From the NCBI GenBank assembly GCA_032718475.1, contig JAUCBJ010001190.1:1-50939 (forward strand): a DNA stretch of 50,939 nucleotides, read 5' to 3'. Position numbers and translations under genes: made by a program. Source of the stretch: Nemertoderma westbladi (lineage: Eukaryota; Animalia; Xenacoelomorpha). This document shows positions 5,639 to 50,939 of this stretch, in pieces. The notes under the pieces were generated by a model, which had not been told where the DNA came from, searched no databases, and was given only the letters and a program-made list of their open reading frames with translations. Each line of letters starts with the position of its first letter. Position 1 is the stretch's first letter.

Positions 5639-8600
5639 GTAATTGAATAGGCAATCAATTATTGTTATAAGTTTTTAACCATGAGTTTTAGGAAATAAAG
5701 CAAATGTTAATGTTATTGCACATTGTATTTGTATTGTGTATGAAAATCGGAGACAGGGGGGGAAACTGGACGCAAATCCCATCTCGGCGAATTAATATCC
5801 CGCCGCAATGTTAAATTCTCAATTTAGGGAAAGGAGCAGGTTACAGAGGCACGTTATTCTAACCAAAACAATAAACTAAAGTTAATAAATTACAGTTTTA
5901 TTTTTGGTAGTAATCAGCTGTTATTTGCGTCGAATTTCCCCTAGTTTTATGCAGGGCTCCACAAAATGCGGAAACTAGGTTTCCGGAAGATTCTGAAAAA
6001 TTCCGAAGATTTTTTAGATTTTTGACTCCCTAAAAACCTGAGATACAATGGAAATAGAATTTATGCACCTAAACAGTAATACTAAAACAATAAAAAACCC
6101 CCCAAAAGTAGATCGCATTTACAAAACCGATCAAAAAGGGATAAAACATGTTCTGAGAAAAGTAAAAAACTAATGTGAGATTTTTCGAAAATAATTTTTG
6201 TACAAATTTACTTTCAAAATTTCTGAATTTCATGTCAATATCTTATGGCCCAGTCAATTAAAAATGCTTCGGAATATCATTTATTTCCTAATCAATTACA
6301 ATCAATCTTATTGTTTAATCTTATATTTTGAACAATATAATAATGTCAGAATGTTGAAAAATTTACACAAATGATTGGGGACAACACCATTATCTCATTT
6401 AGGTTCAATTTATGATGTAGATAAAGATTGGTGATGCACATTTGTGCACAATATAATAGCTGCTGTTATTTTTACACGTGTCGACCCTTTGTCCAAGGGG
6501 CTCTTTCACATAGTTTTATAACCCTGTGTCCTAGTGCAGCATTCGAGGTGGAATCACCCAATTACATAACCACATTAGTTACATTGACTATTTATCACCG
6601 CTTTAGTGATATCCATATTTAGGTTACTTTAATTGGTTAGTTGTGTATCCCACGTCGTAAAACCCCAGAGTAAATCAAGTTTACTGGATATCTACCGGTT
6701 ATTACATAAAATATTTACTTTTTGGGACATCTTCTGAAAACCTGTAACTTTAATTTACTTTTATATTAGTTTTTAACACAAATTTTTATATTCTACTATA
6801 ACTTTTAAGAACCCCGATAGTGGCCTCATGCTTTTCTACATCAAGGCAGTATGAATCAGCTGATGGACCAGTACAGCCTGACTGGCTGATTCTGTATTAC
6901 AGTTTTGATTGTGGATAAACCTGTTTTGCATTACTACTACGATCGGCATGCTGCATTGCAGCTGCATCTGCGCCGCCTTGTCGACAAAATTGCACCGCCA
7001 CAACTCCCTATCACCCATGACATTTGCTAGATCATCCGCATCTTCAAGGCCAGTGTCCTTTAAGATGCGTCTCAAGAAAGTCATGGGCTGTCCACCATGC
7101 TTATTCACTCCATGAGGCTGCCAAAGTACACGATTATGCACTGGCTGGTCCTCACGACGAAAGCAATGTCCTGCAAAGCGGAGGCGACTTTGTTCTAGTG
7201 TCAAGCTTGGGGGAACCAATGGGACACCTCCAATGTTATATAGTGTCTGGTTGGAGATGTGTGCATTGTACTTGACACAATGAACCCGGCGTAGCATTCT
7301 TGTGAATGTGCCATCCAGAGATTTGGTGTCCTCGGCAGTTAGAGTCCAGCTTGGACTCCCATAGAGGAGTACTGGAACTACTGCTGCTCTAAATAATCGG
7401 ACCTTATATATCTATCACTTCCAAATCCTGGAAAGCCTATTCAAGGCTACCCATGCCTTTCCCTTACGTATTCGAAGGTCCTCACCTGACTTCCGGATCC
7501 ATGATCCCAGTGCGGATTAAGCCTCTGGTGGCCCTAAGCCACATTTTAGTAATTTCCAAAAATGGCCCGAAAATTGATATTTTTCCGCAAACCCTTTCAA
7601 AATAAAAAGCTGCTAAAAACAACTGAAATTGTGAAAATGTTGCGAAGGAAATATAAAGTATTTTCGTTGGATGACTGACTGCGTGCATATAACTACTAAT
7701 TACTTTAATAATAAGTACTTTGCAAAAATAGTTTTCATCAAGAATTGTAACATTACTAAACGGCATATTATGCCTATAAAACCTTTGCTATAAAATGTGT
7801 AATGGTTTTGGTAGAATTTCTCAAGCTTTAATTTTTTAATATATTAATGGGACCATTACTGCATTACCCAAAATCTATTTGTTTTATTTATAAAGCTACT
7901 ATTCTGAAACTTTAACACAATGATCTGTGACCAGTTTATATACTATGAAAACTGAATATAGATAGCTTCATAAACCATTTGTTCGAAAAATATGGCACTT
8001 TTTGAACTGGTCGGTTTTTTCAAAATTAGGTGCAAAAAAATTGTTACAAAATCGGCTCTAGAAAATCCAAATGGTTATATTTTACAAAACCAACGATAGT
8101 AGTCCTAAAGCTGCTGAACATTTTGGTATATGTTTATGGCAATTGAGTAAAAAATAAAATAGTAGTAGAATTTAGTGATGAAGAAAGTCAAAATCGACAA
8201 ACTGATAAAAAGGTTGTTTTATACAAAGAGTCATAAATATCAGCAATATAATTATGTTGTTGAAAAGAGCAGTTTTGAGGTCAAAAAATAATTCAATGTT
8301 GAAAACCGATATCACCTTATGAAAGCCCTTCTATCAAACTACAAAAATTGTGCAAATTTTCGAAATTTTCATTTCAGTGGTGGTTATAGTTGGCCCCCTT
8401 AACCCTATTAGTACCGGGCTATAAAATGCTGCACAAATACCGGGGGGGGGGGGGGGGGGGGGTCATATTGACCACTCCCTCTAAAATCTACAAATATTAT
8501 CGAAAACGTCTGATTATTTGTTTGTACGTAGGTATCACTAGTCTGGATCCGACCGAAAAAAAAAATTTCGAAAAAATGTACTGGGGTGGTAATATTGCAG

Positions 8601-11600
8601 CACCAAAATTACAAGTAGTGCACATTTTTCACAAAAATAGAAAGTAACATTTTTCGGCTAATTGTTTTTCAATAAATGATATGATTACCATAAATGGCTG
8701 TTTAGTCCTCTATGCGTAGGAAAAAAATGAAAAAAAAACAAGTAACCAGCACTTTTCAGTTAGAACACAAAATTTATAATTCACTTATACGATGATATAA
8801 ATTCACATTTTCAGGTTTTCTAGAGCGCTGATTCTAATTGAATACATTTCAAATATGCCAGATCATTGCTACTTGTATTTTTCGGCGTAATTTGGCAAAT
8901 TTTGGTGCTAGCACCATATTTCGTACCCATCACCAAAAAGTACAAGTTTGCGATGTCCAGTGCTGTTTTTATTGATTCCATCGGATTCAGGACCCTCATA
9001 AACCCGTATAACGCAAGAAACAAGATGATACTATCTTACTATCTACTGATCAATTTACTCATTTTCCAAAATTTGGTGCTGGCACAACAATTTTCACCCA
9101 CCGGCGAAAAATACAAGTTTGAAAACTCTTATGAAATTTTTACTGATTCCATTGAATTCAGAACCCTAACAAACCCGTATAACGCAAGAAACAAGATGAC
9201 ACAATCAATTGATATATTTGATGGTTTTCAAAATTTGGTGCTAGCACCACATTTTGCACCCACTTCCGAAAAATACAAGTTTGAGATGTCTAGTTCGATA
9301 ATTATATATTCCATTGAATTCAGAACAGCCATAAACCTCTAAAATGCAAGAAATAAATTGTCACAAGCAATTTTATCTATTGAATGGATTTTCAAAATTT
9401 CGTGCTAGCACCAAAATTTGCACACAGCACCGAAAAATACAAGTTTGATACGCTTGGTGCAACTCGTATATATTCCGTCGACACCAGAACCCCAAAAATC
9501 CCCAATTGCGTAATAAACAAGTTTCAATCAATCAATTTAAAAAATTGACATATTTCAAAATTTGGTGCTGGCACCAAAATTTGGCATCCGCCGAAAAAAG
9601 CAAGTTTGAAATTTCTAAATCAATTTATATGAATTCCATCCAATTGCTAACACCAAAAAACCGGTGTAAATCAAAAATAGAGATGTTACAATTAATATTT
9701 AATGAAATGTAATTTTCAAAAAACGTCTCAAAAAAAGTGCCAAAAGTAGGGTTAAAAATGGTGCTATAACTCGAAAACTTTCCAATATTTTTGAAAACGG
9801 TTTTCACTACTATGAAGACAATAGATTTTTAGAAAAGTCATAAAATTTCAGATTCCCAACTGCGTTTGTTTCAGAATTATAATAAAAAAACCACGGGGGG
9901 GTCATATTGACCCCCCCCCCCCCCCCCCCCGGGTTTGATAGGGTTAAGGCTGACTGGCTCCTGTAGGCATTTAGCAATTTTGATCGGATCGTGGGAATGT
10001 GTTATTTATTTTCTGTAGGGTAGGTTTTGCACGGTACTTATCTTTACAGGACTTGCTGAGAAATATAACACACCAAAAGTGTGGGTTTTGTGCAAAGATA
10101 TAATATTTCTTATCTAGATTTGGACTTGCTGAGAAAGAAATGTTCTCCGATAGAGAACAGTCTCGGAAATAAGTACTTTTTGTCACTAATTTTAATTTAC
10201 CAAATTCAATTATGCCGCCCAATTATGCTTTTAGGTTTTGCAGGAATTGCACTAAAAGGCCATCGAATGCAAAATTCAATACACGAGGGCAGAACATCTG
10301 AATTTCGGTTAAATTAAATTAGTGTCAAGAATTTATTTCTGACACGTTTTTTTTATCAACAACTATATTTTATCTATAATTAATTTATCATTTTTTTTTA
10401 TCTATTAGGGCCTATATTTATAAAACTCGTTTCCGGTAAAAAAAATTAATTTCGCACTACCATATCTCCACGCGCCATACATTTACTATGAACAGTATTT
10501 CCAGTATGTCACCACGTCATTATTTGGTTGTTCCAGAAAGTTTAAGAGCATAACTAATTCCCCACAAATAAATAAAATTATATTCTCCATTGTTCATAAT
10601 TAGCACTTTTAAGTTTCACTGCCCATGTTTTTATTATTTCCCTGCCATCAGGTCTCGAACTAATAACACAGCCCCTGTCGGTCAACTGAGCTAGAATTTT
10701 GCAGCACTTTCTATCAGAAATTTAGGGATAGAAAGTAGTCGAAAGATGCACTTTCTTGCTCTGTTTTCTATAAATTTTAGTGAGAAAAAATGTGGACTTT
10801 TCGGATAAAAATATTTTTTTCACAAGAATGACTCGCTGAGAAAAAATGGCCCGTATTTTCGGCTGGCCCTAAGGCACAACGTGCCTTATATGCCTTAAGG
10901 TTAATCCGGCACTGCATGATCCCAGGTAACAGAAGTCATCCACATGCTCAAGCATACCATCTTTTGAGCTTATGATCATCCGATCAGAAACTTGCTGAGG
11001 ACTTTCAAAGTTAACTGTCAAAATTTGGGTCTTTTTGGAGTGAACAAAAAGACCAACACTAGAAGCAGCTTTTTCTATGGCGGTGTTTTCTGGAGTATAA
11101 CTGTGTTGGTTTCATTCTAATAAAACAGTGTTTTGTACAGGTCTTTATTGTGTCTGTATCTGTATTTGTTCTGTATTATATTTTTAAATTTATTATCAAG
11201 TTAATAAATCAAGTTATGTTTGCAAAACACAATACGTGACAGCCACACATTTTATTGTGACATCGAGATTGCCAATTGGATGTCTCCACGAGAAAGAGCA
11301 CAAATTTTTAATTGAGAAGGTATTTTTTTTAATGATTATTGGACCTACTGATCAGTTTATAAGACAACTTCAAATTTCTGGAATAAAGACGGGACTTGAA
11401 TAAGCGACTCTGCGGTCATTGCAGGATTACACGGAGTAGACTTATCGGTCATCGGGGATCTTCAAAATGTATAATCTCCAGTTCTAGTGATCGTTTAGGC
11501 ACATTCGAAAGCTCTTTTCTCAAAGAATAAAGTTACCATTTGATTTAAGATAAAATGGATGTGAAGCAACATAACATGAATTTGGGTAAAATATGCCTTG

Positions 11601-14600
11601 CAAAGTTTGTTCAAGTTATGATTGCTCAAGCAGCTTTCAAGAGTTTGCCAAACCAAATGGTAACTTTGTTCTCTGAGAAAAGAGCTTTCGAATGAGCCCA
11701 AAACGAACTCCATACGACCACTAGAACTGGAGATTATACAATTTGAAGATCTCCGATTACCGATAAGTCTATTCCGTGTATTCCCACAATGACCGCAGAG
11801 TCGCTTATTCAAGTCCCGTCTTTATTCCAGAAATTTGAAATTGTCTTATAAACTGATCAGTAGGTCCAGCAATCATAAAAAATTACCTTCTCGATTAAAA
11901 TGGTATGCTCTTTCTCGTGGAGACATCCAATTGGCACCACTGAGCACATAAATTTGCAGAAACTGAGTGCAAACCCCAAACGTCATCGCATTTACCGATA
12001 TCGCGATATATCGGAGCCAGAATCATCTACCCCAGATATCTCGAAAACTAAGAAAGATATGGGAAAACGGTTTCCATATTTAGATTTACCATGAAATTCT
12101 GCATCAGATAGGATATGTTTCAAAAATTCGACTTTTTGGTCAGAAAATGCGCTACAGCAAAAGGGTAGCAAAAGTGTGTAGGCCGAGAAATTGAATTATT
12201 TATAAATAACTCTAAAAATAAAATTTGGAAATTAATCTTGACCCAAGAAAACCAAAATTACAACGTCAAGTTGCTTTTTAAAGAACTCTTTTTGTGTGTA
12301 TATACCGTACTCCTATCGAAGTACCGTAACCAACTCTAAATACAGTCAGATTGAAATAGCTTCTTTCCAATTAATTGATTTGATTTCAGGAAATGTAAAG
12401 TTATTTCAGTGATGACAAAACTGACGTTAAAATATTTTTAGTTTTGTTTTTATAGCTGTTATCTTTTATCGAGTCTCTCAACCTTCTGTTCCCAACTATA
12501 TGTAACTCGTTACGTTTCTAGGCCTTGACTTCCCGCTGTTCAACGTGCAGCCAATCATTGGGTCGCATTCACAGTTGCGTTCATTGCGTTTACTTCGGTT
12601 GCTACCCCCGCAAGCACATACAGAATCACGCCAGGGAAACAGGGCACCATATCTGTTAGTACTGGGCCTCTAGTGCACTACAACTGGCCTATTATAGGGA
12701 GTGATTGTGGGTCGAATATGTCTTCTATTAAAACTTTGTTCGTTATTATTTGATTGTTTTGATTTTGGAATTGTTTTTAAAACATACATCAAAAGGCTGC
12801 CACTTCGTCTACTGGTGATATTCCTGGGCCTCCAATCACGAGGGCCAAGGCTCGATCCCTTTCCGTAGCAGCACTGTTTTGGCACAGTGCTTTAAATGCT
12901 GCAGCCTAGCTTCACCCATTCTTTCATCCTTTACTAGCCGATAAATTATTGGAACCAGGAAAACTTATAAAACAAACCTTCACATAGTTTAATATGTGAG
13001 AACACCCGTTGTGGTGAAAGTAAGCTCGTATAATTATCTGTAGAGTACAGTAATTAATATTCACCCTCGATTAATATAAAATAATTTATAATTGTAGCCG
13101 TTGATTTACGACTTGGGGCTACATATTGCCACCCTTGTGCCGACTATGTTTACAACGTAGACGTCGATAAATTAGCCAAGGACGCTTTCCAACGGAGTTG
13201 GGCTCGATGTGCAGGTATTTGTTATTAGAGAAAATAAATGTTGGTTAATAAATTGAACAATTCTTATTTACGAGTAAAAAGTTCGGTGAACCAGTGAAAC
13301 ACGAAACACCCGGGGGAACCCGAACGCACCTCTCCGGGCTTGTGTTGGGCGAGTAATTAAGGAGTGGAGTCTACTCTCTTGGGAGTTAGTGTGGCATCCC
13401 CGCCCCCTGTCTTATAGGTAACAGCCACGAGAGATGAGCCTACTGATAGTAATGGGGAGGGTTGCATCTAGGGAATAATCATTAGGCCTAATTCCTTCTT
13501 AGTTTCTAAACTGTAACACCCCCTTCCTACAATTCATAGTGACCAACTTTCTTCCAACCAACATGGCTCCAGTCTAATGGCTCCTCAATATATATTATCA
13601 CATTACGATACTTTTTTATTTAATTCTTTGTTGCAGCGCTTTAAATTCATTGTTTGTTACAGCGCTTTTTATTTTATTTTAATTTTATGTTACAGGCGCT
13701 TTTGATATTTGCCCAGACTGGGAACCAACCATCCAGGAACGGCAGTTACTCAATCGCGCTAAAAAGAGACGCAAAATAGTGGATAACTGCACTCTTGGTA
13801 GGATTCCTATAAATAGGTTTCTTAACTTGCAATTTTAACTTTAACTAACAATTTTACAACAATAACTATTTATTACATGGGGAATAAGTATAGGCTTTAT
13901 TTCCCCCGAGCTGTATAAGTTGACAAACGGGCTCAGCGACCAATAATATGTCACTAGGATTATGAGGGAAAAAATGTACTTTTTTTCATGCAATAATTTC
14001 GTTTAAAAGTATTTTTATACGTCATAATTATTGTGCGGCGATTGTAATTCTTATTTGATTGATTTATCGGGGAACTTATTTAAGGTTTCCACTGGAAGCT
14101 ATCAAGCTATGTGTGTAGTAATACTACTACTACTAGGATCGGCATGCTGCATTGCAGCTGCATTTTTAAGAATGCTGTGTCAGCTTGTCGACAAAATTGC
14201 ACCGCCACAACTCCCTATCACCCATTACATTTGCTAGATCATCCGCATCTTTAAGGCCAATGTCCTTTAAGATGCGTCTCAAGAAAGTCATGGGCTGTCC
14301 ACCATGCTTATTCACTCCATGAGGCTGCCAAAGCACAAGATTGTGCACTGGCTGGTCCTCACGGCGAAAGCAATGTCCTGCAAAGCGGAGGCGATTTTGT
14401 TCTAGTGTCAAGCTTGGGGGAACCATTGAGACACCTCCAATGTTATATAGTGTCTGGTTGGAGATGTGTGCATTGTACTTGACACAATGAACTGCCATCC
14501 GCCGAACTGACAAGTGAATGTGCCATCCAGAGATTTGATTATTGATAGTAACAATGTGTTGGCAAGCTGTATTTATCGAGGTGTTTGTTATTATACATTT

Positions 14601-17600
14601 ATTATAGGCTATATAGCTGGCTTTGAATTTAATACTCCATATCTCAAGAACCTGTGGCCTAGTGGTTGTAGTCTCGGCTTCCACCTCGAGGTCCCAGGTT
14701 CGAATCCGACACCACGCTGATGAGACCCAGTAAGGTCGAAACGCGTACGTGGTTTGGAGAGATATGAGATATTAATTTCAAGAAAAATTACGCGATTCCA
14801 AAATTTGTACACTACCCGGTTAAAAAGTACGCATGTGATGGGATTAGTCCTACAAATGCGCCAATAAAAGATAAGTTATTTTCGGTAAAATAAACTTATC
14901 ATTCGAGGTTAAGACCCCTAGATCCCTTCCTATAATAAATGTATCATAACAAACACCTCGAAAAATACAGCTTGCCAAAACCTTGTTACTATCAATAATC
15001 AAAAATCAGGGGCTAATAAAATGGCAGCTGGCTTTGAAATTAATACTCCATATCTCAAGAACCTGTGGCCTAGTGGTTGTTGTCTCGGCTTCCACCTCGA
15101 GGTCCTAGGTTCGAATCCGACACCACGCTGATGAGACCCAGTAAGGTCGAAACGCGTACGTGGTTTGGAGAGATATGAGATATTAATTTCAAGAAAAATT
15201 ACGCGATTCCAAAATTTGTACACTACCCGGTTAAAAAGTACGCATGTGATGGGATTAGTCCTACAATTGCGCCAATAAAAGATAAGTTATTTTCGGTAAA
15301 ATAAACTTATCATTCGAGGTTAAGACCCCTAGAACCCTTCCTATAATAAATCCAGAGATTTGATGTCCTCAGCAGTTAGAGCCCAGCATGGACTCTCATA
15401 GAGGAGTACTGGAACTACTGCTGCTCTAAATAATCGGACCTTACGTTTCCGATTAATTCTCGTTGACTTCCAAATCCTGGAAAGCCTATTCAAGGCTGCC
15501 CATGCCTTTCCCTTACGTATTCGAAGGTCCTCACCTGACTTCCGGATCCATGATCCCAGGTAACAGAAGTCATCCACATGCTCAAGCATACCATCTTTTG
15601 AGCTTATGCTCATCCGATCTGGAGAAGGGTCGTAGTGTAAATGCATTACAGTCTTGTATAGAGCTCCTGTATTTCCTACGAAACAGGATATGGTCTCTCT
15701 GGGACTTGTGACCACTGGGTTCACTATGAGTCATAGCTTTCCAGTTCGCTTCTTGAACTGGGTTCCAGCCGAAAACAATCCATTTCCAGAGATAAAATCC
15801 TGAAGATTGACGGAATTTCGGTTAACACTATTGCTATAGACCCAGGGCGAAGTAGGTGATTGATGCAGACTTGCATTAAAGTCTCCCAGGAATGTTAAGA
15901 ATGCATGCTGATCCACTCCATCAGTAGCTGCTTGTAGATTGTGGTATAAATTTTCCACCTCCTCTACAGGGGCAACACTAGTTGGAGAGTAGCACACAAT
16001 CAGAACCACCTTAGGAAACTTCTTAGCCAGTCTTCCAGAACATGAGAAGTGGCAACGGATGATGCGGTTAGAGATTTGGTCTATTTTGTCCAATGCTGCA
16101 TGTGCATTGCCACTATCATCTGCTGAGGCGAGTGCGAGTCGCCAACCGCCCCCATGTCCTTAATCAGAACCTCATCCGTCTGTCCAGTCTGCATTCGGTG
16201 CTCTTGAACACCCACTGCGCTAAGAGAAAGCTTATCTGCCAAGGCAGTCAGCTCACCTTGTCGCATTGGGGACCCGAGTGTTAGGGTGTTTACTGAGGCT
16301 AGTCTAGTGATTTGCCTCAGATTCACCAATGGCTTTGTTGGTCGGGGTGGAACATGAGAGTAGCCTCCAACTCCAGAATCCCTCTCCCCCTCGCAATCTG
16401 GCTTCGCTGGTGACCCAGTGTTTGGGCCAGAAAGGTCATCAGGAAAGGGACTCAAAGAATTGTTTGCCGCTCTCTCTCCAGTAGGGGGTGAGACAGGCAG
16501 CCGGTCAGGAGTTAACTGACGCCTGTGAGGCCGATTGTGTCCGGTCATTCCACTGGCCTCTAGTGGCTGGACCTGCGCATTACTAATGTAATCCATAGTG
16601 GGGGTTGGGGGGTGCTTTTTTGCCGAGTCAGCTCTCGGGGCAAATACCACACCCTGGTTTGCCATTCCACAGGGTGGGTGTCGCAGTGGAGTCAGATATG
16701 AGGCCCATCACCCATATCTACTCTGGCGCACATAACCCACCATTGGCTGTGCAGCTCATCTGCTGGGTCATGCCCTGTACCCTTTCATCCAGGTGCAGGT
16801 CGCAGTGAAGTGCTCTCAGACTGGACATGAGAACACTCTACTCCTGACCAGCCATTGGTAGATCACTATCTGCCTGGTCAGGCCATATACCCCTGCAGCC
16901 AAGTATATGGGTCCTTAATCCAGGACCAAGGGCGTCCTATTCCCAGAACGAAGGGGGTCCTAGTTAGTAGTTACAGGACCAGATTTGCCCTAGTAAGAGG
17001 GTCTATACATCTACAGGTGGCACCTCCTTTATGCTGCGTGGAGGTGGCAAGTTTTCTTGATCAATGACCTAGAATACCTGACCTGACCTTGTAGTAATAA
17101 CCAAAATGTGATTAAGCAAAATAAATACTACATGTATTTATTTAGCCCTGTGGCATAGCCCATTTAGTGTTACACTAATTTATACTTTTTTTAATTCATA
17201 TTGTTTGACCTTTAAGTAAATAGTTCACCTGTTCTTATATTTAGGGTTACGTGGACTAATTAATTTGGGACAGACTTGTTTTATGAACTGCATTCTACAA
17301 GCGATCGCCCACACACCAGTGCTACGCAACTATTTTCTATCCGATAAACACCATTGCCCGCCCTCTATGCTGTCCCAATGCGTCGCATGCGAACTCTCTG
17401 GTCTATTCCAGCAGGTAAGTCGTACAGCGGGTAATTTGTACAGCGGGTAAGTCGTACAGCGGGTAAGTCGTACAGCGGGTAAGTCGTACAGCGGGTAAGT
17501 CGTACAGCGGGTAAGTCGTACAGCGGGTAAGTCGTACAGCGGGTAAGTTGTACAGCGGGTAAGTCGTACAGCGGGTAAGTCGTACAGCGGGTAAGTCGTA

Positions 17601-20600
17601 CAGCGGGTAAGTCGTACAGCGGGTAAGTCGTACAGCGGGTAAGTCGTACAGCAGGTAAGTCGTACAGCGGGTAAGTCGTACAGCGGGTAAGTCGTACAGC
17701 GGGTAAGTCGTACAGCGGGTAAGTCGTACAGCGGGTAAGTCGTACAGCGGGTAAGTCGTACAGCAGGTAAGTCGTACAGCGGGTAAGTCGTACAGCGGGT
17801 AAGTCGTACAGCAGGTAAGTCGTACAGCGGGTAAGTCGTACAGCGGGTAAGTCGTACAGCGGGTAAGTCGTACAGCGGGTAAGTCGTACAGCGGGTAAGT
17901 CGTACAGCGGGTAAGTCGTACAGCAGGTAAGTCGTACAGCGGGTAAGTCGTACAGCGGGTAAGTCGTACAGCGGGTAAGTCGTACAGCGGGTAAGTTGTA
18001 CAGCGGGTAAGTCGTACAGCGGGTAAGTCGTACAGCGGGTAAGTCGTACAGCGGGTAAGTCGTACAGCGGGTAAGTCGTACAGCGGGTAAGTCGTACAGC
18101 GGGTAAGTCGTACAGCGGGTAAGTCGTCTAGCGGGTAAGTCGTACAGCGGGTAAGTCGTACAGCGGGTAAGTCGTACAGCGGGTAAGTCGTACAGCGGGT
18201 AAGTCGTGCAGCGGGTAAGTCGTACAGCAGGTAAGTTGTACAGCGGGTAAGTCGTACAGCGGGTAAGTCGTACAGCGGGTAAGTCGTACAGCAGGTAAGT
18301 CGTACAGCGGGTAAGTTGTACAGCGGGTAAGTCGTACAGCAGGTAAGTCGTACAGCGGGTAAGTCGTACAGCGGGTAAGTCGTATAGCGGGTAAGTCGTA
18401 CAGCAGGTAAGTCGTACAGCAGGTAAGTCGTACAGCGGGTAAGTCGTACAGCTGGTAAGTCGTACAGCGGGTAAGTCGTACAGCGGGTAAGTCGTACAGC
18501 GGGTAAGTCGTACAGCGGGTAAGTCGTACAGCAGGTAAGTCGTACAGCGGGTAAGTCGTACAGCGGGTAAGTTGTACAGCGGGTAAGTCGTACAGCGGGT
18601 AAGTCGTCTAGCGGGTAAGTCGTACAGCAGGTAAGTTGTACAGCGGGTAAGTCGTACAGCGGGTAAGTCGTACAGCAGGTAAGTCGTACAGCAGGTAAGT
18701 CGTACAGCAGGTAAGTCGTACAGCAGGTAAGTCGTACAGCGGGTAAGTCGTACAGCGGGTAAGTCGTACAGCGGGTAAGTCGTACAGCGGGTAAGTCGTA
18801 CAGCAGGTAAGTCGTACAGCGGGTAAGTCGTACAGCGGGTAAGTCGTACAGCAGGTAAGTCGTACAGCAGGTAAGTCGTACAGCAGGTAAGTCGTACAGC
18901 AGGTAAGTCGTACAGCAGGTAAGTCGTACAGCGGGTAAGTCGTACAGCGGGTAAGTCGTACAGCGGGTAAGTCGTACAGCGGGTAAGTCGTACAGCAGGT
19001 AAGTCGTACAGCGGGTAAGTCGTACAGCGGGTAAGTCGTACAGCGGGTAAGTCGTACAGCGGGTAAGTCGTACAGCGGGTAAGTCGTACAGCGGGTAAGT
19101 CGTACAGCAGGTAAGTCGTACAGCAGGTAAGTCGTACAGCAGGTAAGTCGTACAGCAGGTAAGTCGTACAGCAGGTAAGTCGTACAGCGGGTAAGTCGTA
19201 CAGCGGGTAAGTCGTACAGCGGGTAAGTCGTACAGCGGGTAAGTCGTACAGCAGGTAAGTCGTACAGCAGGTAAGTCGTACAGCGGGTAAGTCGTACAGC
19301 TGGTAAGTCGTACAGCAGGTAAGTCGTACAGCGGGTAAGTCGTACAGCAGGTAAGTCGTACAGCAGGTAAGTCGTACAGCAGGTAAGTCGTACAGCGGGT
19401 AAGTCGTACAGCTGGTAAGTCGTACAGCAGGTAAGTCGTACAGCGGGTAAGTCGTACAGCAGGTAAGTCGTACAGCGGGTAAGTCGTACAGCAGGTAAGT
19501 CGTACAGCAGGTAAGTCGTCTAGCGGGTAAGTTGTACAGCGGGTAAGTTGTACAGCGGGTAAGACGTACAGCAGGTAAGTCGTACAGCAGGTAAGTCGTA
19601 CAGCAGGTAAGTCGTACAGCGGGTAAGTCGTACAGCAGGTAAGTCGTACAGCGGGTAAGTCGTACAGCGGGTATAAGTCGTACAGCGGGTAAGTCGTACA
19701 GCGGGTATAAGTCGTACAGCGGGTAAGTCGTACAGCGGGTAAGTCGGGGTAAGTCGTACAGCGGGTAAGTCGTACAGCAGGTAAGTCGTACAGCAGGTAA
19801 GTCGTACAGCAGGTAAGTCGTACAGCAGGTAAGTCGTACAGCGGGTAAGTCGTACAGCGGGTAAGTCGTACAGCAGGTAAGTCGTACAGCAGGTAAGTCG
19901 TACAGCGGGTAAGTCGTACAGCGGGTAAGTCGTACAGCAGGTAAGTCGTACAGCGGGTAAGTCGTACAGCAGGTAAGTCGTACAGCGGGTAAGTCGTACA
20001 GCGGGTATAAGTCGTACAGCGGGTAAGTCGTACAGCGGGTAAGTCGGGGTAAGTCGTACAGCGGGTAAGTCGTACAGCAGGTAAGTCGTACAGCAGGTAA
20101 GTCGTACAGCGGGTAAGTCGTACAGCGGGTAAGTCGTACAGCAGGTAAGTCGTACAGCGGGTAAGTTGTACAGCGGGTAAGTCGTACAGCGGGTAAGTCG
20201 TACAGCGGGTAAGTCGTACAGCGGGTAAGTCGTACAGCGGGTAAGTCGTACAGCGGGTAAGTCGTCTAGCGGGTAAGTCGTACAGCGGGTAAGTCGTCTA
20301 GCGGGTAAGTCGTACAGCGGGTAAGTCGTACAGCGGGTAAGTCGTACAGCGGGTAAGTCGTCTAGCGGGTAAGTCGTACAGCGGGTAAGTCGTCTAGCGG
20401 GTAAGTCGGGGTCAGTCGTACAGCGGGTAAGTCGTATAGCGGGTAAGTCGTACAGCGGGTAAGTCGTACAGCGGGTAAGTTGTACAGCGGGTAAGTCGTA
20501 CAGCAGGTAAGTCGTACAGCGGGTAAGTCGTACAGCTGGTAAGTCGTACAGCGGGTAAGTCGTACAGCAGGTAAGTCGTACAGCGGGTAAGTCGTACAGC

Positions 20601-23600
20601 AGGTAAGTCGTACAGCGGGTAAGTCGTACAGCAGGTAAGTCGTACAGCGGGTAAGTCGTACAGCAGGTAAGTCGTACAGCGGGTAAGTCGTACAGCAGGT
20701 AAGTCGTACAGCGGGTAAGTCGTACAGCGGGTAAGTCGTACAGCGGGTAAGTCGTACAGCGGGTAAGTCGTACAGCGGGTAAGTTGTACAGCAGGTAAGT
20801 CGTACAGCGGGTAAGTTGTACAGCGGGTAAGTCGTACAGCAGGTAAGTCGTACAGCGGGTAAGTCGTACAGCGGGTAAGTCGTACAGCGGGTAAGTCGTC
20901 TAGCGGGTAAGTCGTACAGCGGGTAAGTCGTCTAGCGGGTAAGTCGTACAGCGGGTAAGTCGTACAGCTGGTAAGTCGTACAGCGGGTAAGTCGTACAGC
21001 GGGTAAGTCGTACAGCGGGTAAGTCGTACAGCGGGTAAGTTGTACAGCAGGTAAGTCGTACAGCGGGTAAGTTGTACAGCAGGTAAGTCGTACAGCGGGT
21101 AAGTTGTACAGCAGGTAAGTCGTACAGCAGGTAAGTCGTACAGCGGGTAAGTCGTACAGCGGGTAAGTCGTACAGCGGGTAAGTCGTCTAGCGGGTAAGT
21201 CGTACAGCGGGTAAGTCGTACAGCGGGTAAGTCGTACAGCGGGTAAGTCGTACAGCGGGTAAGTTGTACAGCAGGTAAGTCGTACAGCGGGTAAGTCGTA
21301 CAGCGGGTAAGTCGTACAGCGGGTAAGTCGTCTAGCGGGTAAGTCGTACAGCGGGTAAGTCGTCTAGCGGGTAAGTCGTACAGCGGGTAAGTCGTACAGC
21401 TGGTAAGTCGTACAGCGGGTAAGTCGTACAGCGGGTAAGTCGTACAGCGGGTAAGTCGTACAGCGGGTAAATTGTACAGCAGGTAAGTCGTACAGCGGGT
21501 AAGTTGTACAGCGGGTAAGTCGTACATCAGGTAAGTCGTACAGCGGGTAAGTCGTACAGCGGGTAAGTCGTACAGCGGGTAAGTCGTACAGCGGGTAAGT
21601 CGTACAGCGGGTAAGTCGTACGCAGGTAAGTCGTACAGCGGGTAAGTCGTACAGCGGGTAAGTCGTACAGCGGGTAAGTCGTACAGCGGGTAAGTCGTAC
21701 AGCGGGTAAGTCGTACAGCGGGTAAGTCGTACAGCGGGTAAGTCGTACAGCAGGTAAGTCGTACAGCAGGTAAGTCGTACAGCAGGTAAGTCGTACAGCG
21801 GGTAAGTCGTACAGCGGGTAAGTTGTACAGCAGGTAAGTCGTACAGCGGGTAAGTCGTACAGCGGGTAAGTCGTACAGCTGCAGGTAAGTCGTACAGCGG
21901 GTAAGTTGTACAGCAGGTAAGTCGTACAGCGGGTAAGTCGTACAGCAGGTAAGTTGTACAGCGGGTAAGTCGTACAGCGGGTAAGTCGTACAGCGGGTAA
22001 GTTGTACAGCGGGTAAGTCGTACAGCGGGTAAGTCGTACAGCGGGTAAGTCGTACAGCGGGTAAGTCGTACAGCGGGTAAGTCGTACAGCGGGTAAGTCG
22101 TACAGCGGGTAAGTCGTACAGCGGGTAAGTTGTACAGCGGGTAAGTCGTACAGCGGGTAAGTCGTACAGCGGGTAAGTCGTACAGCGGGTAAGTCGTACA
22201 GCGGGTAAGTCGTACAGCGGGTAAGTCGTACAGCGGGTAAGTCGTACAGCGGGTAAGTCGTACAGCGGGTAAGTCGTACAGCGGGTAAGTCGTACAGCGG
22301 GTAAGTCGTACAGCGGGTAAGTCGTACAGCAGGTAAGTCGTACAGCGGGTAAGTCGTACAGCGGGTAAGTCGTACAGCGGGTAAGTCGTACAGCAGGTAA
22401 GTCGTACAGCGGGTAAGTCGTACAGCGGGTAAGTCGTACAGCGGGTAAGTCGTACAGCGGGTAAGTCGTACAGCGGGTAAGTCGTACAGCGGGTAAGTTG
22501 TACAGCAGGGAAGTCGTACAGCGGGTAAGTCGTACAGCGGGTAAGTTGTACAGCAGGTAAGTCGTACAGCGGGTAAGTCGTACAGCGGGTAAGTCGTACA
22601 GCGGGTAAGTCGTACAGCGGGTAAGTCGTACAGCGGGTAAGTCGTACAGCGGGTAAGTCGTATACAGCGGGTAAGTCGTACAGCGGGTAAGTCGTACAGC
22701 GGGTAAGTCGTACAGCGGGTAAGTCGTACAGCGGGTAAGTCGTACAGCGGGTAAGTCGTACAGCGGGTAAGTCGTACAGCGGGTAAGTCGTACAGCGGGT
22801 AAGTCGTACAGCGGGTAAGTCGTACAGCGGGTAAGTCGTACAGCGGGTAAGTCGTACAGCGGGTAAGTCGTACAGCGGGTAAGTCGTACAGCAGGTAAGT
22901 CGTACAGCGGGTAAGTCGTACAGCGGGTAAGTCGTACAGCGGGTAAGTCGTACAGCGGGTAAGTCGTACAGCGGGTAAGTTGTACAGCAGGTAAGTCGTA
23001 CAGCGGGTAAGTCGTATAGCGGGTAAGTCGTACAGCGGGTAAGTCGTACAGCGGGTAAGTCGTACAGCGGGTAAGTCGTACAGCGGGTAAGTCGTACAGC
23101 GGGTAAGTCGTACAGCGGGTAAGTCGTACAGCGGGTAAGTCGTACAGCGGGTAAGTCGTACAGCGGGTAAGTCGTACAGCGGGTAAGTTGTACAGCGGGT
23201 AAGTCGTACAGTGGGTAAGTCGTACAGCGGGTAAGTCGTGCAGCGGGTAAGTCGTACAGCGGGTAAGTCGTACAGCGGGTAAGTCGTACAGCTGCAGGTA
23301 AGTCGTACAGCGGGTAAGTTGTACAGCAGGTAAGTCGTACAGCGGGTAAGTCGTACAGCAGGTAAGTTGTACAGCGGGTAAGTCGTCTAGCGGGTAAGTC
23401 GTCTAGCGGGTAAGTCGTACAGCGGGTAAGTCGTACAGCGGGTAAGTCGTACAGCGGGTAAGTCGTACAGCGGGTAAGTCGTACAGCGGGTAAGTCGTAC
23501 AGCGGGTAAGTCGTACAGCGGGTAAGTTGTACAGCGGGTAAGTCGTACAGTGGGTAAGTCGTACAGCGGGTAAGTCGTGCAGCGGGTAAGTCGTACAGCG

Positions 23601-28385: not shown

Positions 28386-28781
28386 GTAAGTAAATTATAT
28401 TATAAAAATCATAAAATATACTTTATTTAGTTTGTAATAAGTAACTTATTATTATAACTTTCATTGGGCATAGCTTTGCAAAGTCGGCTATGACGTCCAG
28501 GTGGGATCGAACTGGTCACCTCCAGTTTTTCTTTCTCACTTTTTAATCAGCTTTGAAATTACCACTACCATAAAACATTAATTTACCGTAGAGTAAATTT
28601 ACATTTACTTTACTTTATTTAAAATATGATGATAATAATATAAAGACTTTACCTTGTTGAGCATTTACGATTAAATAAGTATTCATACATACAACACATA
28701 TTCACTAAATTGTACAATAACTACGACAACCGTAACCTTTACAGTAGTCCAAGTCCAGGGTGTAACACGGTTTTGATATCC

Positions 28782-34396: not shown

Positions 34397-34506
34397 CTAC
34401 ATCTTCTTCCACATTTTCCTTTCCTTATGTATTTCGTTCGCAGGACCTTCATAATTCTCCAATAATCTCCGCCCAGTTTGCTATAAAGCTGCTTTACGCT
34501 CTCAGT

Positions 34507-34558: not shown

Positions 34559-37500
34559 CTGAAATATTGTTATATTTTGATGTATTAGTGGCCTAAATTA
34601 TACCGCATAAGGTTGAAACTTGAAACAAGCTTAATAATATTTGGGTAAAAACAAATTTAGAGACAATGAAATTTATATACAGACAATACCTTCAATAAGG
34701 GACTATCCTTAAATTGCGTAACGCGTGAGAGGGAGGGGGGGGGGGGGGGGGGGGGTGGTCAAAAATCGTCTAAAATACCGTCACTAAATTTAAGGATGAC
34801 TCCTAATGACTCCTGTTTGACTCACTTTCTCTTATAAATAGCGCAGATAATGGCAAGAATGAGTATTATCCAAGATGCTACCGCTATCCCAACCATAATT
34901 CCCCAATGACTTTCCAATTCTGCCTCTGTGCCCGCTACTACCTGGTCTACAACACCGTTGTCACTCAGTGCGTTATTGAGTGTGTCTTCTAGATCATTCT
35001 TCATCTCCGAGATTTTGTTTTCTTTCACGTTGATTTTTGAGACTACCCAGAGCTGACTGGTCTTCCTCTTTTGAACAATGCATTCCCATTGTCCGATATA
35101 TGTTGCTTCCATGGCAGGAATGGAATACGACATATCCTGGGGGAATATTATTTATTATTATATATACTTCTGGTAGCTTCACAACAACTTGTTGTGGTTT
35201 TTCTACTGCAGACATAGACTATGTGTGTTAGCGGATCCAGTCCACTATGCGCTCCCATTACAAAGTGGAGCGGGTGCCAATTTACCAATATTGGCCGTAA
35301 GAAACATCAGGCTAGTAAGTGAGTTAAACTCACTTACAGCAAACCCAAAACCCAATATAGCTCGGCAGGGGGATAAGCGTGATATTGCAGCCAATGAGCA
35401 GGGTGTATCAACTCTAAGGCTACCATATTGGTACGATTATCAATTCCCAGTTGTCGGTCAGCTGACGGTCAGTCGGAAGGCCGAACCCTTCATAGGGCGG
35501 CAGTTAATTTAACCCACAGAGGGTGATACGTTTTGTATAATCGTATCATATAGGCTACAGTACAACATCGGCTACCGGTCTAGTATCTTCAGTCAGTGCA
35601 ATCGACAATTTCATTATATTGACGCCACAGTTATTAACTATATCCGCTTTTCTGTACCTGACCCCCGACAACAATCTGTGTATTGCTAAGTTAATAAGAA
35701 AACTAACCCCAGCATCAACCTATAACATCCGCCGCGCCAACCTCCCTCCCGTCACAATGTGGGTGGCCTGGTCTGGTCACTCATTCAGTGGTCACTCTTC
35801 TCACATAGACCAGACAGGTATTCAGTAGTTATTCCACCAAAGAGTGGCCGTTGTATTACTTGTATTATACTCACAGATTTTTCAGTCTTTTTATCTCCTA
35901 TAAGTTTAGGTCGCTTTATTTTGACCCCATCCTGGACCCAGTAGACTTCAGTGTCTGCCAAGTAATGAACCAATGATTGACTTGGGCATTTTAATATCAA
36001 CGGCTGACCAACATCAAGTGATACCGTGACAGATACTGCAAAATAATTTCATTAAATTTGGTTTAGCTTATCAAAAACAAATGTAATGTAATTAACAAAA
36101 GATTGGCAAGTGAATAATGAATTGTTCTTGTCTCTCCTATTTCACTCTATTTTAATTAATCCGTTAGGTTATGACACTTAAAACCCTGCCGTTAGTAAAT
36201 AGTAAAGAAAAAGATTAAGTGTCATGGGACTTTAAGAAAATCCATGTTTTTTTTTATTATACTCAACAAACCATATTAACGATACCGACACTATTCAATA
36301 CAAATTAATAGCAATATTAATTTGACTACAATAATTATTTAAATAACATTTAAATTAGTTATACTTAACTTATCTTAGGAAACATACCAGTGATCAAGTA
36401 GCAATCCAAAGTTTCTGTTTTGTTCACCGCCCAGTTAATGTGATATACGTATATGCCATTGTTTTTTTCTTGAGCTTTTTCTATCAATAGTTTGTTTATC
36501 CAATGGTAATCGCCTTTGAATTTTAAAAAAGAAACTATTTGCTGTTATGAACTATTTGCAATGTAACTTTATTGCAAGAGTTATATTTTCGATTTGTTCG
36601 ACATAATATATCGACAAATATTCGATACAAACCAAATAGGTTCAGCGAAATTCCAGGAAGATCTTACTGTACAATTAATATTTTTCTTTATAATGTAATA
36701 TATATTCTAGAACATCTCTAATTCGATCCTAATTCTTCACTATACTGCACTCTATGATTTGCTTGAACAGCCAATTACAATAATTACCAACTTCATACAA
36801 TTATGCCAACTCCAAATCATCGACGTCCAACATTTGAACTGAAGTTTCATAATATAATTAATACATTGGTAATTTACGGTTCGACTATTTAGAGCGGCAT
36901 TAGAACAGGTACTCCTATATAGGTGTCCATGCTGGGCTCTAACTGCTGAGGACACCAAATCTCTGGATAGTAACAATGTGTTGGCAAGCTGTATTTTTCG
37001 AGGTGTTTGTTATTATACATTTTATTATAAGAAGGGATCTAGGGGTCTTAACCTCGAATGATAAGTTTATTTTACCGAAAATAACTTATCTTTTATTGGC
37101 GCAATTGTAGGACTAATCCCATCACATGCGTACTTTTTAACCGGGTAGTGTACAAATTTAGGAATCGCGTAATTTTTCTTGAAATTAATATCTCATATCT
37201 CTCCAAACCACGTACGCGTTTCGACCTTACTGGGTCTCATCAGCGTGGTGTCGGATTCGAACCTGGGACCTCGAGGCGGAAGCCGAGACTACAACCACTA
37301 GGCCACAGGTTCTTGAGATATGGAGTATTAATTTCAAAGACAGCTGCCATTTTATTAGCCCCTGATTTTTGATTATTGATAGTAACAATGTGTTGGCAAG
37401 CTGTATTTTTCGAGGTGTTTGTTATTATACATTTTATTATAAGAAGGGATCTAGGGGTCTTAACCTCGAATGATAAGTTTATTTTACCGAAAATAACTTA

Positions 37501-40500
37501 TCTTTTATTGGCGCAATTGTAGGACTAATCCCATCACATGCGTACTTTTTAACCGGGTAGTGTACAAATTTAGGAATCGCGTAATTTTTCTTGAAATTAA
37601 TATCTCATATCTCTCCAAACCACGTACGCGTTTCGACCTTACTGGGTCTCATCAGCGTGGTGTCGGATTCGAACCTGGGACCTCGAGGCGGAAGCCGAGA
37701 CTACAACCACTAGGCCACAGGTTCTTGAGATATGGAGTATTAATTTCAAAGACAGCTGCCATTTTATTAGCCCCTGATTTTTGATTATTGATAGTAACAA
37801 TGTGTTGGCAAGCTGTATTTTTCGAGGTGTTTGTTATTATACATTTTATTATCCTAGACCCCTTAACCGTTAAGACCGTTAAGACCCCTAGATCCCTTCT
37901 TATAATAAAATCTCTGGATGGCACATTCACAAGAATGCTACGCCGGGTTCATTGTGACAAGTACAATGCACACATCTCCAACGAGTATATAACATTGGAG
38001 GTGTCTCATTGGTACCCCCAAGCTTGACACTAGAACAAAATCGCCTCCGCTTTGCAGGACATTGCTTTCGCCGTGAGGACCAGCCAGTGCATAATCTTGT
38101 ACTTTGGCAGCCTCATGGAGTGAATAAGCATGGTGGACAGCCCATTTCGCACACTTCGCCGGGAGGCCTGGCGGCGTGAGGCCGTATCGCAGCGCGAGGT
38201 TGTCGCGGAACACCTCTGGGGCCAGGTCGGTGTTATCGACGACGTAAGGCTGCGCCGACAGCCACCCACACGTCTTGTGGGACACCGTACGGTCGACAGT
38301 TCGGCGCCTTTCGGCAGGGACGGAATGGACTGCGGACTCCATAGCTGCCTTATAGGCAGCGTCCTGGGCGACGCGACTCGCAGCCAATGCGGAGACAGGA
38401 CGGACTGAGTGGTCGACGACGATTTGGTTGGGAAATAGCTCAGTTATGGGCATTGGAATGTTGCATGTATTTGCTTCCGCTGCAGGCCATTTTTTATATT
38501 TAATAAATACACAAATATTTTTACATATTTGGAATCCTTGCATGGCCAGCTTTCCATTGGTACCAACAAACAGCTATAAGGTTGAAGAATAACTGCGGTG
38601 TAACTGGTGCAAAATCGACGGAGACACTTTTTTCAAACGCTTGTAGCTAAAGGATGAAAGCGAAAATAAAAATTCTGGCTCACCCAGCAAGGAGGAGGTA
38701 TAGGTGCAAAACTATCTCTGTTTCAAATTTCATGCAATCGAATTTGTAGTCGAATTTGGGGGGGGGGGGGGGTGGCACTGAATTACGACACTATATTCCA
38801 GAACATGGTTGCCAACTTCTATAGAATTTATATCAATTAAACAGATCTCCTATTGGTTGATTATTCGCTATTTGCTGCGTTATATTGACGAAAATGTGTT
38901 TTTTTAATGTGTTTTTTTGTGATTTTATTTTTATTTTTTATTTTTTACATAATGATTAGCTAGTAGAGTTGTAATTAAAATGATTAGCTCATTAGATTTT
39001 TAATTAAAATATGTTACTGAGTCACTTTTCAGTTAATAGTTTGCTTTTATCAGGTCAATTAGATCAAGAAACGGTGTCTCGACATGAAGTCCACGCCATC
39101 TGAACTCCCCTAAGTGATTTTCAATGTTTGCCACAGCACTTTTATTTCGATGCATAATTGCGAATTTAGCATGGCGCCACATCCCTTCTATACGTTGGGT
39201 ATTAGCCCCGGTTGCTGGGTTCACAAAACGCCCCTTTCCCTTGGTAGCATGCTTCACTTTGAGGTGCGTGTAGCCCCCATTTCCATCGCTGCACTGCCAC
39301 TGATCCCTCCTGTTCATGATACCAACTCGCCGACCGCAATATGCTGACCATTCATCTGACATAATTGTCGTTCCACCTTTGATATGGCGTTCAACAATCG
39401 GTCGTAGTGTTTCTGTGTCACGTCGCTGCACATGGAACATTCGCATGTCGACTGATTTATCAGCTCTTTTATGGACTAGCCCAAAAATCCATGGCCCATC
39501 AACAACTGCTCGTCCATAATTCCTTGCAGCGCTGATGTAATCTCCTTTCAGCTTCCTCCCGCGCTTATATTTCCTCCGACCCCAAAACAGTGATTCATCG
39601 ATTTGAATCGATTCTCCTGGGCCGCCCATTGGGTCTGCCTCCTTCATGTCCTTGTACATTAATTCACGTTCAAAGTTGGCCCAATCAATCATCGTGTGAT
39701 CATTGATGTAACCAACTATTCCACCAAGTAGACGGTGAGTTACCTTCATAGTTGTTTCTATGATGAAGAAGAACATCAGCCAGAGAATTTGCTTTACCAA
39801 TAGATTTGAGTTGTTTGCAAACCATGTTTCAACACGTGCAGACCGGCGATGCCTCTTTGGAGAACTGCAGAGCCACATCAGACGTGGAAAACAGTGTCTA
39901 GGTTACAATCTTGTTCAATTTGTGCGTCATCTTTCGGAAGTAGACCAACTCGTTGCATGAATTTTATAGCATTACCTGCATCTCCAATCTGAGAAACCAA
40001 CTCTTCCACGTTCGGATCATGCCGATTAGGTCTAGGATAGTGGTGTCTTATATCACCGCCACCACCTGCCATTTTATAGCTAGTCGTATAAATATAAAAT
40101 AAACGCACTTAAGAATGTGTAAAACAAAATAATACAAATTAAAAATGTTCCAGAAAAACCAACGTTATTAAATCACAAAAAAAAACACATTTTCGTCACC
40201 CGGGCCACAGTAGTACCTGGCACGTTATGCTAACCAAAACAAACATTAAACAATGTGTGCGACAATCCCCCTGCCTGTGATAACTCAGGAGTTGAAGTGC
40301 TAATTCGATGTGTTTACGGTAAGGTCAAGTAATTAACAACCCCAACCCATCTTATAATTAAACTTGAAATTGGCGCTATTGATGTATTATTGTATTGATT
40401 GACCAGAAATTAACTTACTTTTTTTGGGTCCCTTTTCATGACTATTTATTGATGATATATTTCTGCCATTATGCGTCCAGTAAGCATATTTGTATGACAT

Positions 40501-47085: not shown

Positions 47086-47323
47086 ACAACGTAGTTTTAT
47101 TCCAAAATTGTAACATTACGAAACGGCTACTGAAGAAAATCTGAGTATGAAACTTTTGATATTAAAAAAAGAGCATAATTGTTGTTGGAATTCATCATGT
47201 AAGATTAGCTCACCCCCCCCCCCCCCCCCCCCCCCCCAAACAGTAGTTAATGTAATTACGGTTTGCTGTTGCCTTCACCAGTTCATTTTGCTAATTGGTC
47301 TAGCTAGTATTTACATTTATTTA

Positions 47324-50300: not shown

Positions 50301-50939
50301 AATCCGTGTTTTACACTCCATTCCGGATCAAATAAAACTTGGTAATTGACGTAAATCCGTGTTTTACACTCCATTCCGGATCCAACAAAACTTGGTAATT
50401 AACGTAAATCCGTGTTTTACACTCCATTCCGGATCCAATAAAACTTGGTAATTAACGTAAATCCGTGTTTTACACTCCATTCCGGATCCAATAAAACTTG
50501 GTAATTAACGTAAATCCGTGTTTTACACTCCATTCCGGATCCAACAAAACTTGGTAATTAACGTAAATCCGTGTTTTACACTCCATTCCGGATCCAACAA
50601 AACTTGGTAATTAACGTAAATCCGTGTTTTACACTCCATTCCGGATCCAATAAAACTTGGTAATTAACGTAAATCCGTGTTTTACACTCCATTCCGGATC
50701 CAACAAAACTTGGTAATTAACGTAAATCCGTGTTTTACACTCCATTCCGGATCCAACAAAACTTGGTAATTAACGTAAATCCGTGTTTTACACTCCATTC
50801 CGGATCCAATAAAACTTGGTAATTAACGTAAATCCGTGTTTTACACTCCATTCCGGATCCAATAAAACTTGGTAATTAACGTAAATCCGTGTTTTACACT
50901 CCATTCCGGATCCAACAAAACTTGGTAATTAACGTAAAT
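47324..50939. mobile_element. Foldback-type element: inverted arrays of a 53-bp unit around a ~0.9-kb core; right end outside window
   Basis: Left array ~47510-48620 (GGATCCGGAATGGAGTGTAAAACACGGATTTACGTTAATTACCAAGTTTTATT), right array ~49507-50939 is its reverse complement. The left terminus is TTA|GGGTAGGTGTAAAACGCGGATCCGG. Confidence 0.85.
49227..49409 (+). CDS. Possible 60-aa micro-ORF with a basic C-terminus in the foldback core
   Basis: AAACATGG start context, upstream ATTGG (49052) and TATTTAA (49140), AATAAA overlapping the stop, and KKKTRKVRKPRK. Confidence 0.35.
   Translation: MDDSDDFVKVPFTGFVIPSPTNETAIVEPLELTTQTSCTPSPEKKKTRKVRKPRKVTKEQ

Follow-up and report, generated by a model that had tools for sequence, protein, structure and literature searches.

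The question raised by two loci of contig JAUCBJ010001190.1 of Nemertoderma westbladi (assembly GCA_032718475.1; the whole stretch of 50,939 nt is called the window here) is how a short repeat that carries both a ribozyme and promoter boxes is copied and inserted. The repeat, a mobile tandem element of high copy number without coding capacity, carries tRNA-type boxes and a type I hammerhead in each unit, and the answer that we consider probable is that it spreads as a non-LTR retrozyme (LTR, long terminal repeat) by means of the enzyme of a Penelope-like element. An earlier note on this DNA had already placed the repeat among retrozyme-like, Sm-alpha-like, retrotransposed elements. Further support for that placement comes from features that the note did not mention, namely target duplications, 5' pieces in inverted orientation and the high abundance of the repeat; the note also omitted the run of four T (T4) in each unit and the single nucleotide of a long interspersed nuclear element (LINE) at which both insertions lie.

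Firstly, the four proposed units of 411/412 bp are present, with hammerhead cores at 14717 and 15128 on the plus strand (locus 1) and at 37243 and 37655 on the minus strand (locus 2), giving core-to-core spacings of 411 and 412 nt, respectively. The loose core pattern occurred on average 0.59 times in shuffled sequence, and 1 of 100 shuffles reached four occurrences. The unit has a GC content of 39% (window background 36%); the open-reading-frame (ORF) list holds no long ORF inside it, and no LTR, primer-binding site or polypurine tract was found in it, the latter two being judged by eye. Helix I comprises 6 bp and helix II 4 bp with a 6-nt loop, no extra base precedes helix II, and helix III is the palindrome only, as the earlier note had it. 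Its comparison with the minimal Penelope hammerhead did not hold: that motif has a helix II of 7–8 bp, a helix I of 4–5 bp and an extra base before helix II (PMC4209133), whereas the geometry seen here, as read from the sequence, fits the canonical metazoan type I motif of the same report. An A box and a B box, exact in all four units with a gap of 31 nt, lie upstream of each core (8e-5 such pairs expected by chance). Both boxes stand as claimed and their spacing fits a tRNA head, but neither Rfam tRNA (E 10) nor ARAGORN called a tRNA at the unit head, and its putative description as tRNA-derived refers to the two boxes and the distance between them.

Secondly, the unit is predicted to fold into a structure that brings its ends together. 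For the cut-to-cut monomer a folding energy of -109.7 kcal/mol (z -5.5) is predicted, its 5' end pairing with its 3' region, and 57–59% of it is paired when folded as a circle; the monomer ends would be juxtaposed in one long stem, an arrangement that fits ligation. Because one of the two arms of the 23-bp stem is found upstream of the RNA polymerase III (Pol III) start as inferred, this stem is possible only in a read-through transcript, a cut monomer or a circle. In folds that include the arm, stem I forms with a mean p of 0.91 and stem II with a mean p of 0.99, and the extension of stem I into the B box proposed earlier is present in the predicted folds. Stem III is unformed in the single motif, and a palindrome-palindrome duplex is predicted at -9.5 kcal/mol; two palindromes pairing in this way would behave as in a double hammerhead. 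A folding switch that blocks the first hammerhead was considered and rejected, as stem I forms in short nascent transcripts (0.88–0.91) and its probability drops only in longer arm-less transcripts.

Thirdly, the insertions themselves are not the clean head-to-tail dimers described in the earlier note, as locus 1 consists of an inverted piece and 1.8 units and locus 2 of an inverted piece and 2.15 units (Table 1). In monomer coordinates the 3' end of locus 1 lies at 191 and its inverted piece runs from 251, while at locus 2 the 3' end lies at 244 and the inverted piece runs from 190; microhomology at the four junctions is 2, 6, 3 and 4 nt, and a poly(A) tail is found at the 3' junction of neither locus. 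Because the junction positions (~190 and ~244–257) swap roles, each event appears to have been primed once in zone A and once in zone B, two A-rich zones ~60 nt apart that each insertion uses once (2/2). In contigs from public sequencing runs (X1 to X5 below), loose ends of the element cluster at monomer 188–197 and 252 (X1 and X3) and inverted pieces also occur (X3 and X5), both among the matches listed (18 of 481). A partial tandem, an inverted 5' piece and two internal start sites are found in both insertions. The Penelope-like element PAc is described as cutting and extending both strands and as starting at two adjacent internal RNA sites (PMC11167929), and typical of Penelope elements, by description, are partial tandem copies in which the 5' copy is inverted and a tail is present at either end (PMC8557442). 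Both sense bodies start upstream of the first promoter, that of locus 1 by 33 nt relative to the inferred Pol III start, and hold two hammerheads each, so that a circle would suffice as template and no longer source is needed.

Table 1. Positions of the element, its parts and its target sites in the window
Feature	Position	Strand	Remarks
Left target-site duplication, locus 1, 15 bp	14525..14539	+	ATCCAGAGATTTGAT
Inverted 5' piece, locus 1	14540..14608	-	monomer ~183-251; 6-nt microhomology to end of left duplication
Sense body, locus 1, 1.8 units	14615..15349	+	3' junction at monomer 191, 2-nt microhomology
Right target-site duplication, locus 1	15350..15364	+	
A and B boxes, unit 1	14655..14707	+	A box 14655-14665, B box 14697-14707; exact match to consensus
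Type I hammerhead, unit 1	14711..14753	+	predicted cut after 14747; Rfam
3' arm of 23-bp stem	14759..14781	+	pairs with 15034-15056 in cut-to-cut monomer
T4 run, one per unit	14879..14882; second copy 15290-15293	+	possible Pol III terminator
Inferred reverse-transcription start zone A	14935..14944	+	monomer ~188-197
Inferred reverse-transcription start zone B	14991..15004	+	monomer ~244-257
5' arm of 23-bp stem	15034..15056	+	upstream of inferred Pol III start of unit 2
A and B boxes, unit 2	15066..15118	+	exact match to consensus
Type I hammerhead, unit 2	15122..15164	+	predicted cut after 15158; Rfam
Downstream target duplication, locus 2, 12 bp	36957..36968	-	
Sense body, locus 2, 2.15 units	36969..37854	-	3' junction at monomer 244
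Hammerheads, locus 2	37619-37661 and 37207-37249	-	predicted cuts after 37625 and 37213
A and B boxes, locus 2	37665-37717 and 37253-37305	-	
Short scrambled junction, locus 2	37855-37877		
Inverted 5' piece, locus 2	37878..37907	+	ends at monomer 190, 4-nt microhomology
Upstream target duplication, locus 2, 12 bp	37908..37919	-	
Host LINE copy interrupted by locus 1	14128..16707	-	endonuclease fragment joined to C-terminal region of reverse transcriptase; short-repeat tail; 5' limit approximate
Empty target site in third copy of the same LINE (6932-7510)	7313..7327	+	

Taken as a retrozyme, the element would be transcribed by Pol III starting at the unit head and sometimes passing T4, or alternatively by a host transcript running through. 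Two hammerheads would pair their palindromic stems III, cut and release a 411-nt monomer whose ends meet in the long stem, and a host ligase would close it. A dimer of a Penelope-type reverse transcriptase (RT) with a GIY-YIG nuclease would then nick both DNA strands 12–15 nt apart and prime from both at the two A-rich zones, one primer copying about two turns round the circle and the other yielding the short inverted piece.

Several observations weigh against this account. The partner is one that we infer, because no Penelope ORF was found in the window, where 62 ORF scans gave no hit to a Penelope ORF or to GIY-YIG. The T4 run is what most weakens the Pol III dimer model: with T4 in every unit, Pol III would have to read through before it could transcribe a second hammerhead, and the units show no significant depletion of T runs (P ~0.55); T4 is reported to have terminated human Pol III very efficiently in vitro, with read-through observed in vivo (PMC3141230). 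The proposed check against Rfam Hammerhead_1 gave a match to the whole model (1–45, zero broken pairs) but at 26.0 bits (E 3.9e-5 on a 53-nt stretch) it falls below the gathering score of 34, and HH9 at 26.6 bits on 4/4 copies likewise falls below its own (52). The identical core that the earlier note took as a sign of conservation is uninformative, because just 9 of 325 columns vary among the four copies (by chance, 13 nt of core would stay unchanged with a probability of 0.69, and 40 nt with one of 0.30). Preferential conservation of the core, also proposed there, was not significant in the four window copies or in the six common variants of runs X1 and X3 (P 0.51), and one contig of run X5 has a decayed core. 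L1 is described as also giving 5' inversions and 15-bp duplications. Lastly, insertion of PAc is reported not to have needed hammerhead cleavage (PMC11167929), 8 of 9 Xenopus retrozyme dimers to have remained uncleaved in vitro (bioRxiv 10.64898/2026.07.22.740005), and a linear multimer as template accounts for the insert lengths equally well as a circle.

These last points bear on the alternative that survives best, although we hold it to be unlikely: the same element with the same Penelope-type partner, in which the template would be an uncleaved linear multimer, the hammerhead would be slow or protein-gated and the circle unnecessary. It agrees with the inactivity of the Xenopus dimers, with the reports that PAc inserts from unprocessed RNA and that its hammerhead needs protein (PMC11167929), and with the prediction that stem III is unformed in a single motif. 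It would require source arrays of at least three units read uncut, however, and leaves aside that the 23-bp stem closes exactly the cut-to-cut monomer and that circles are described to form from coral, mussel and axolotl retrozymes (PMC7229834).

Both target duplications start at one identical nucleotide in two diverged copies of one LINE of the apurinic/apyrimidinic endonuclease (APE)-RT type, of which a third copy in the window has the site empty. Among 604 candidates, 6 hits align the LINE segment with the C-terminal portion of APE-RT proteins that consist of one ORF of ~1,000 aa, and the duplication start lies between the codons for Asp33 and Gly34, both invariant in 7/7 aligned sequences. 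We label the LINE provisionally as RTE-like from its ORF layout and short-repeat tail. The copy interrupted by locus 1 lacks the RT core, and it may belong to a derivative that is non-autonomous and present in very many copies. The site also shows a third event, with the same 12-bp duplication and an insert of 20 nt (runs X1 and X2, one sample), the first 7 letters of which match inverted zone B, with the remainder unlike the element; in run X5, 3 of the 112 contigs aligned to the empty site break off at 7324.

Mobilisation by an APE-type LINE, either the RTE-like host or an L1/Tx1-type element, would explain the inversions by twin priming and the shared site by a site-specific endonuclease. 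Duplications of 12–15 bp with 5' inversions are features described for L1, the host LINE is very abundant, and some Tx1 elements are known to be target-specific and to insert in other transposons. We nevertheless regard this as improbable, since the inserts have no poly(A) or common 3' tail, their 3' ends being internal and variable, the two zones are used interchangeably by both primers, and the element is antisense to the LINE with no similarity between the two in self-comparison. A single ancient insertion that was later duplicated and rearranged, in which case the shared site would say nothing of targeting, would account for the same nucleotide and orientation 22 kb apart but is largely refuted, and is the least credible of the alternatives, as all four junctions and the duplication lengths differ, the flanks (26/304 positions, 8.6%) are ~4-fold more diverged than the inserts (16/735, 2.2%; Fisher p 8e-6), the left flank of locus 2 is nearer to the empty copy (7/226 differences) than to locus 1 (13/225), and the third event stands at the site with its 12-bp duplication. 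The differing junctions and the more diverged flanks thus mark the two insertions as independent events.

How strictly the Penelope-type retrozyme would be directed to this site is a separate matter. The chance that both insertions hit LINE sites is ~0.005 (for a six- or seven-base motif chosen post hoc). Against exclusive targeting, the site is not among the matches listed for runs X1–X3 when contigs are aligned to the empty LINE site (24 of 642), and the loose ends of the element enter mixed AT-rich flanks (agreement 0.42–0.53, among the matches listed); repeat-repeat junctions yield very short contigs, so contig tables cannot count them. The simplest reading is a hotspot rather than exclusive targeting, in which a nuclease preference of moderate length would be satisfied by a very abundant LINE. 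It is conceivable, if doubtful, that a promoter-bearing retrozyme, together with its Penelope-type partner, favours the point between the invariant Asp and Gly codons of an RTE-like LINE for its insertions; the element would then be a circular-RNA parasite directed at another transposon, and every insertion would record the priming of both strands on a circle. A literature search by title or start of abstract, with incomplete journal coverage and without Repbase and Dfam, found no insertion of a Penelope element or retrozyme into RTE or other transposons; the same kind of search, again with incomplete journal coverage, found no tRNA-derived Penelope partner.

Beyond the window the family is highly repeated, with many insertions away from the LINE site in public contigs. 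Contigs aligned to the monomer number 3,542 in run X1, 1,379 in X3 and 77 in X5, and summed depth relative to single-contig depth suggests ~3,000–40,000 units, with more for the LINE (an order of magnitude, from depth and not copy number). Run X4, which carries another species label and is guessed to be RNA, includes one 441-nt contig (depth 13.8) whose end leads back into its beginning; since tandem DNA gives the same shape, we do not count it in favour of a circle. An index of other DNA stretches contained no look-alike of the monomer, a protein atlas search returned unnamed clusters only, and a metagenome scan for a B box with a core found 5 loci, none similar to the window element. In loci L002 (~264–795) and L003 (~1027–1343), tRNA genes form dense arrays of prokaryotic or phage-like type, and hammerhead-like motifs occur in the spaces between these genes (in L003, Rfam Hammerhead_1 at 40.4 bits and a GOLLD RNA); both loci are unrelated to the element. 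One contig of run X5 covering 14866–14990 has 9 T-to-C changes among 14 differences (3 others being private to the window copy), an excess with a binomial p of 1e-4 to 2e-6 in this one contig; all 9 precede A or T (context p 0.05). The pattern looks like adenosine-to-inosine hyper-editing of an antisense or inverted piece that may later have been reverse-transcribed.

On its sequence features we file the element as a retrozyme and not as a Penelope element. It has tandem units within 150–450 bp with a type I hammerhead, a GC content below 50%, target duplications that exceed 4 bp (15 bp at locus 1 and 12 bp at locus 2, the site being empty in another LINE copy) and a monomer predicted to be self-paired, as non-LTR retrozymes do, and its A and B boxes lie directly 5' of the hammerhead, as in Sm-alpha. 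ORF scans of the window gave no RT plus GIY-YIG frame of an autonomous Penelope element, and the hammerhead (helix I 6, helix II 4, no extra base) is not the minimal one of Penelope pseudo-LTRs. The architecture is already known from Sm-alpha and animal non-LTR retrozymes; the element is a new family of a known kind, its variant features being its own promoter boxes, the both-strand priming marks and the reused LINE site.

Schistosoma Sm-alpha and Sj-alpha are SINE-like elements in whose tandem units a type I hammerhead is described behind a Pol III promoter (PMC6765202, PMC2770079, PMC8490949). The window element likewise has boxes and hammerhead in each unit and tandems of at least two, and the >10,000 copies and tRNA-related head reported for Sm-alpha may be further likenesses. 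Its unit is 411 bp rather than ~335 bp (compared by description only) and its hammerhead scores 26 bits on Rfam Hammerhead_1, below that model's cut-off; the Sm-alpha descriptions, as far as these sources present them, give no integration marks, partner or target site (PMC6765202, PMC2770079, PMC8490949). Animal non-LTR retrozymes, described as tandem type I hammerhead repeats that yield circles (PMC7229834) and proposed as dependants of Penelope elements (bioRxiv 10.64898/2026.07.22.740005), share with it short non-coding tandem repeats, a GC content below 50%, a canonical type I hammerhead with a weak palindromic helix III, a self-paired monomer, duplications longer than 4 bp and a proposed Penelope partner. 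Unlike the retrozymes of one review, which seem to be without a promoter (PMC7761336), the window element has exact A and B boxes, and its unit of 411 nt is slightly longer than their circles of 170–400 nt; in the accounts consulted, both-strand priming marks and a reused site are not described for animal retrozymes. With endonuclease-positive Penelope-like elements (PAc, PMC11167929; PMC8557442; PMC4209133) it has in common a partial tandem whose 5' piece is inverted, a pair of neighbouring internal start sites, a variable duplication length and AT-rich flanks. It differs from them in having no ORF and a canonical rather than minimal hammerhead, in start zones ~60 nt apart compared with a tail of 30–40 bp, and in a junction microhomology of 2–6 nt where PAc is described to start without homology (PMC11167929); the targets described for such elements in the accounts consulted are microsatellites, telomeres and 28S rDNA, that of the window element a LINE.

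The remainder of the window includes satellites, LINE fragments and exons of a gene with a ubiquitin carboxyl-terminal hydrolase (UCH) domain (25426–25824 and 28045–28386, plus strand), outside which both retrozyme insertions lie. Adjoining the LINE fragment of locus 2 is an ORF fragment (37941–38573, minus strand) with no Pfam hit and a motif that we take to resemble the C-terminus of CRE-type non-LTR elements. It is followed by an ISXO2-like (IS1595) transposase (39036–39902, minus strand; Pfam E 1e-9), presumably of a Merlin-type DNA transposon, and by another LINE (44776–47161, minus strand) with an open RT frame of 628 aa (Pfam RVT_1, E 3e-36). Satellite arrays occupy 17409–24996, 28782–34406, 47512–48622 and 49486–50939, with units of 16 bp (474 copies) and 37/49 bp and two 53-bp arrays in opposite orientation. 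Fold-back palindromes at 765–1047 (96%) and 11270–11936 (82%) are probably miniature inverted-repeat transposable elements, and the Rfam mir-8515 match there reflects the hairpin only.

For the transcription and integration of animal retrozymes, the reviews give no promoter and a Penelope partnership that is only suggested. The family in the window brings Pol III boxes of its own, and its junctions agree with what a Penelope enzyme does in vitro, namely priming on both strands and starting at two internal sites. As its near-identical copies run into the thousands and its reused target also occurs empty, statistics over many junctions could show where a Penelope-type nuclease nicks and which sequence it prefers, and the same statistics could test circular against linear templates.

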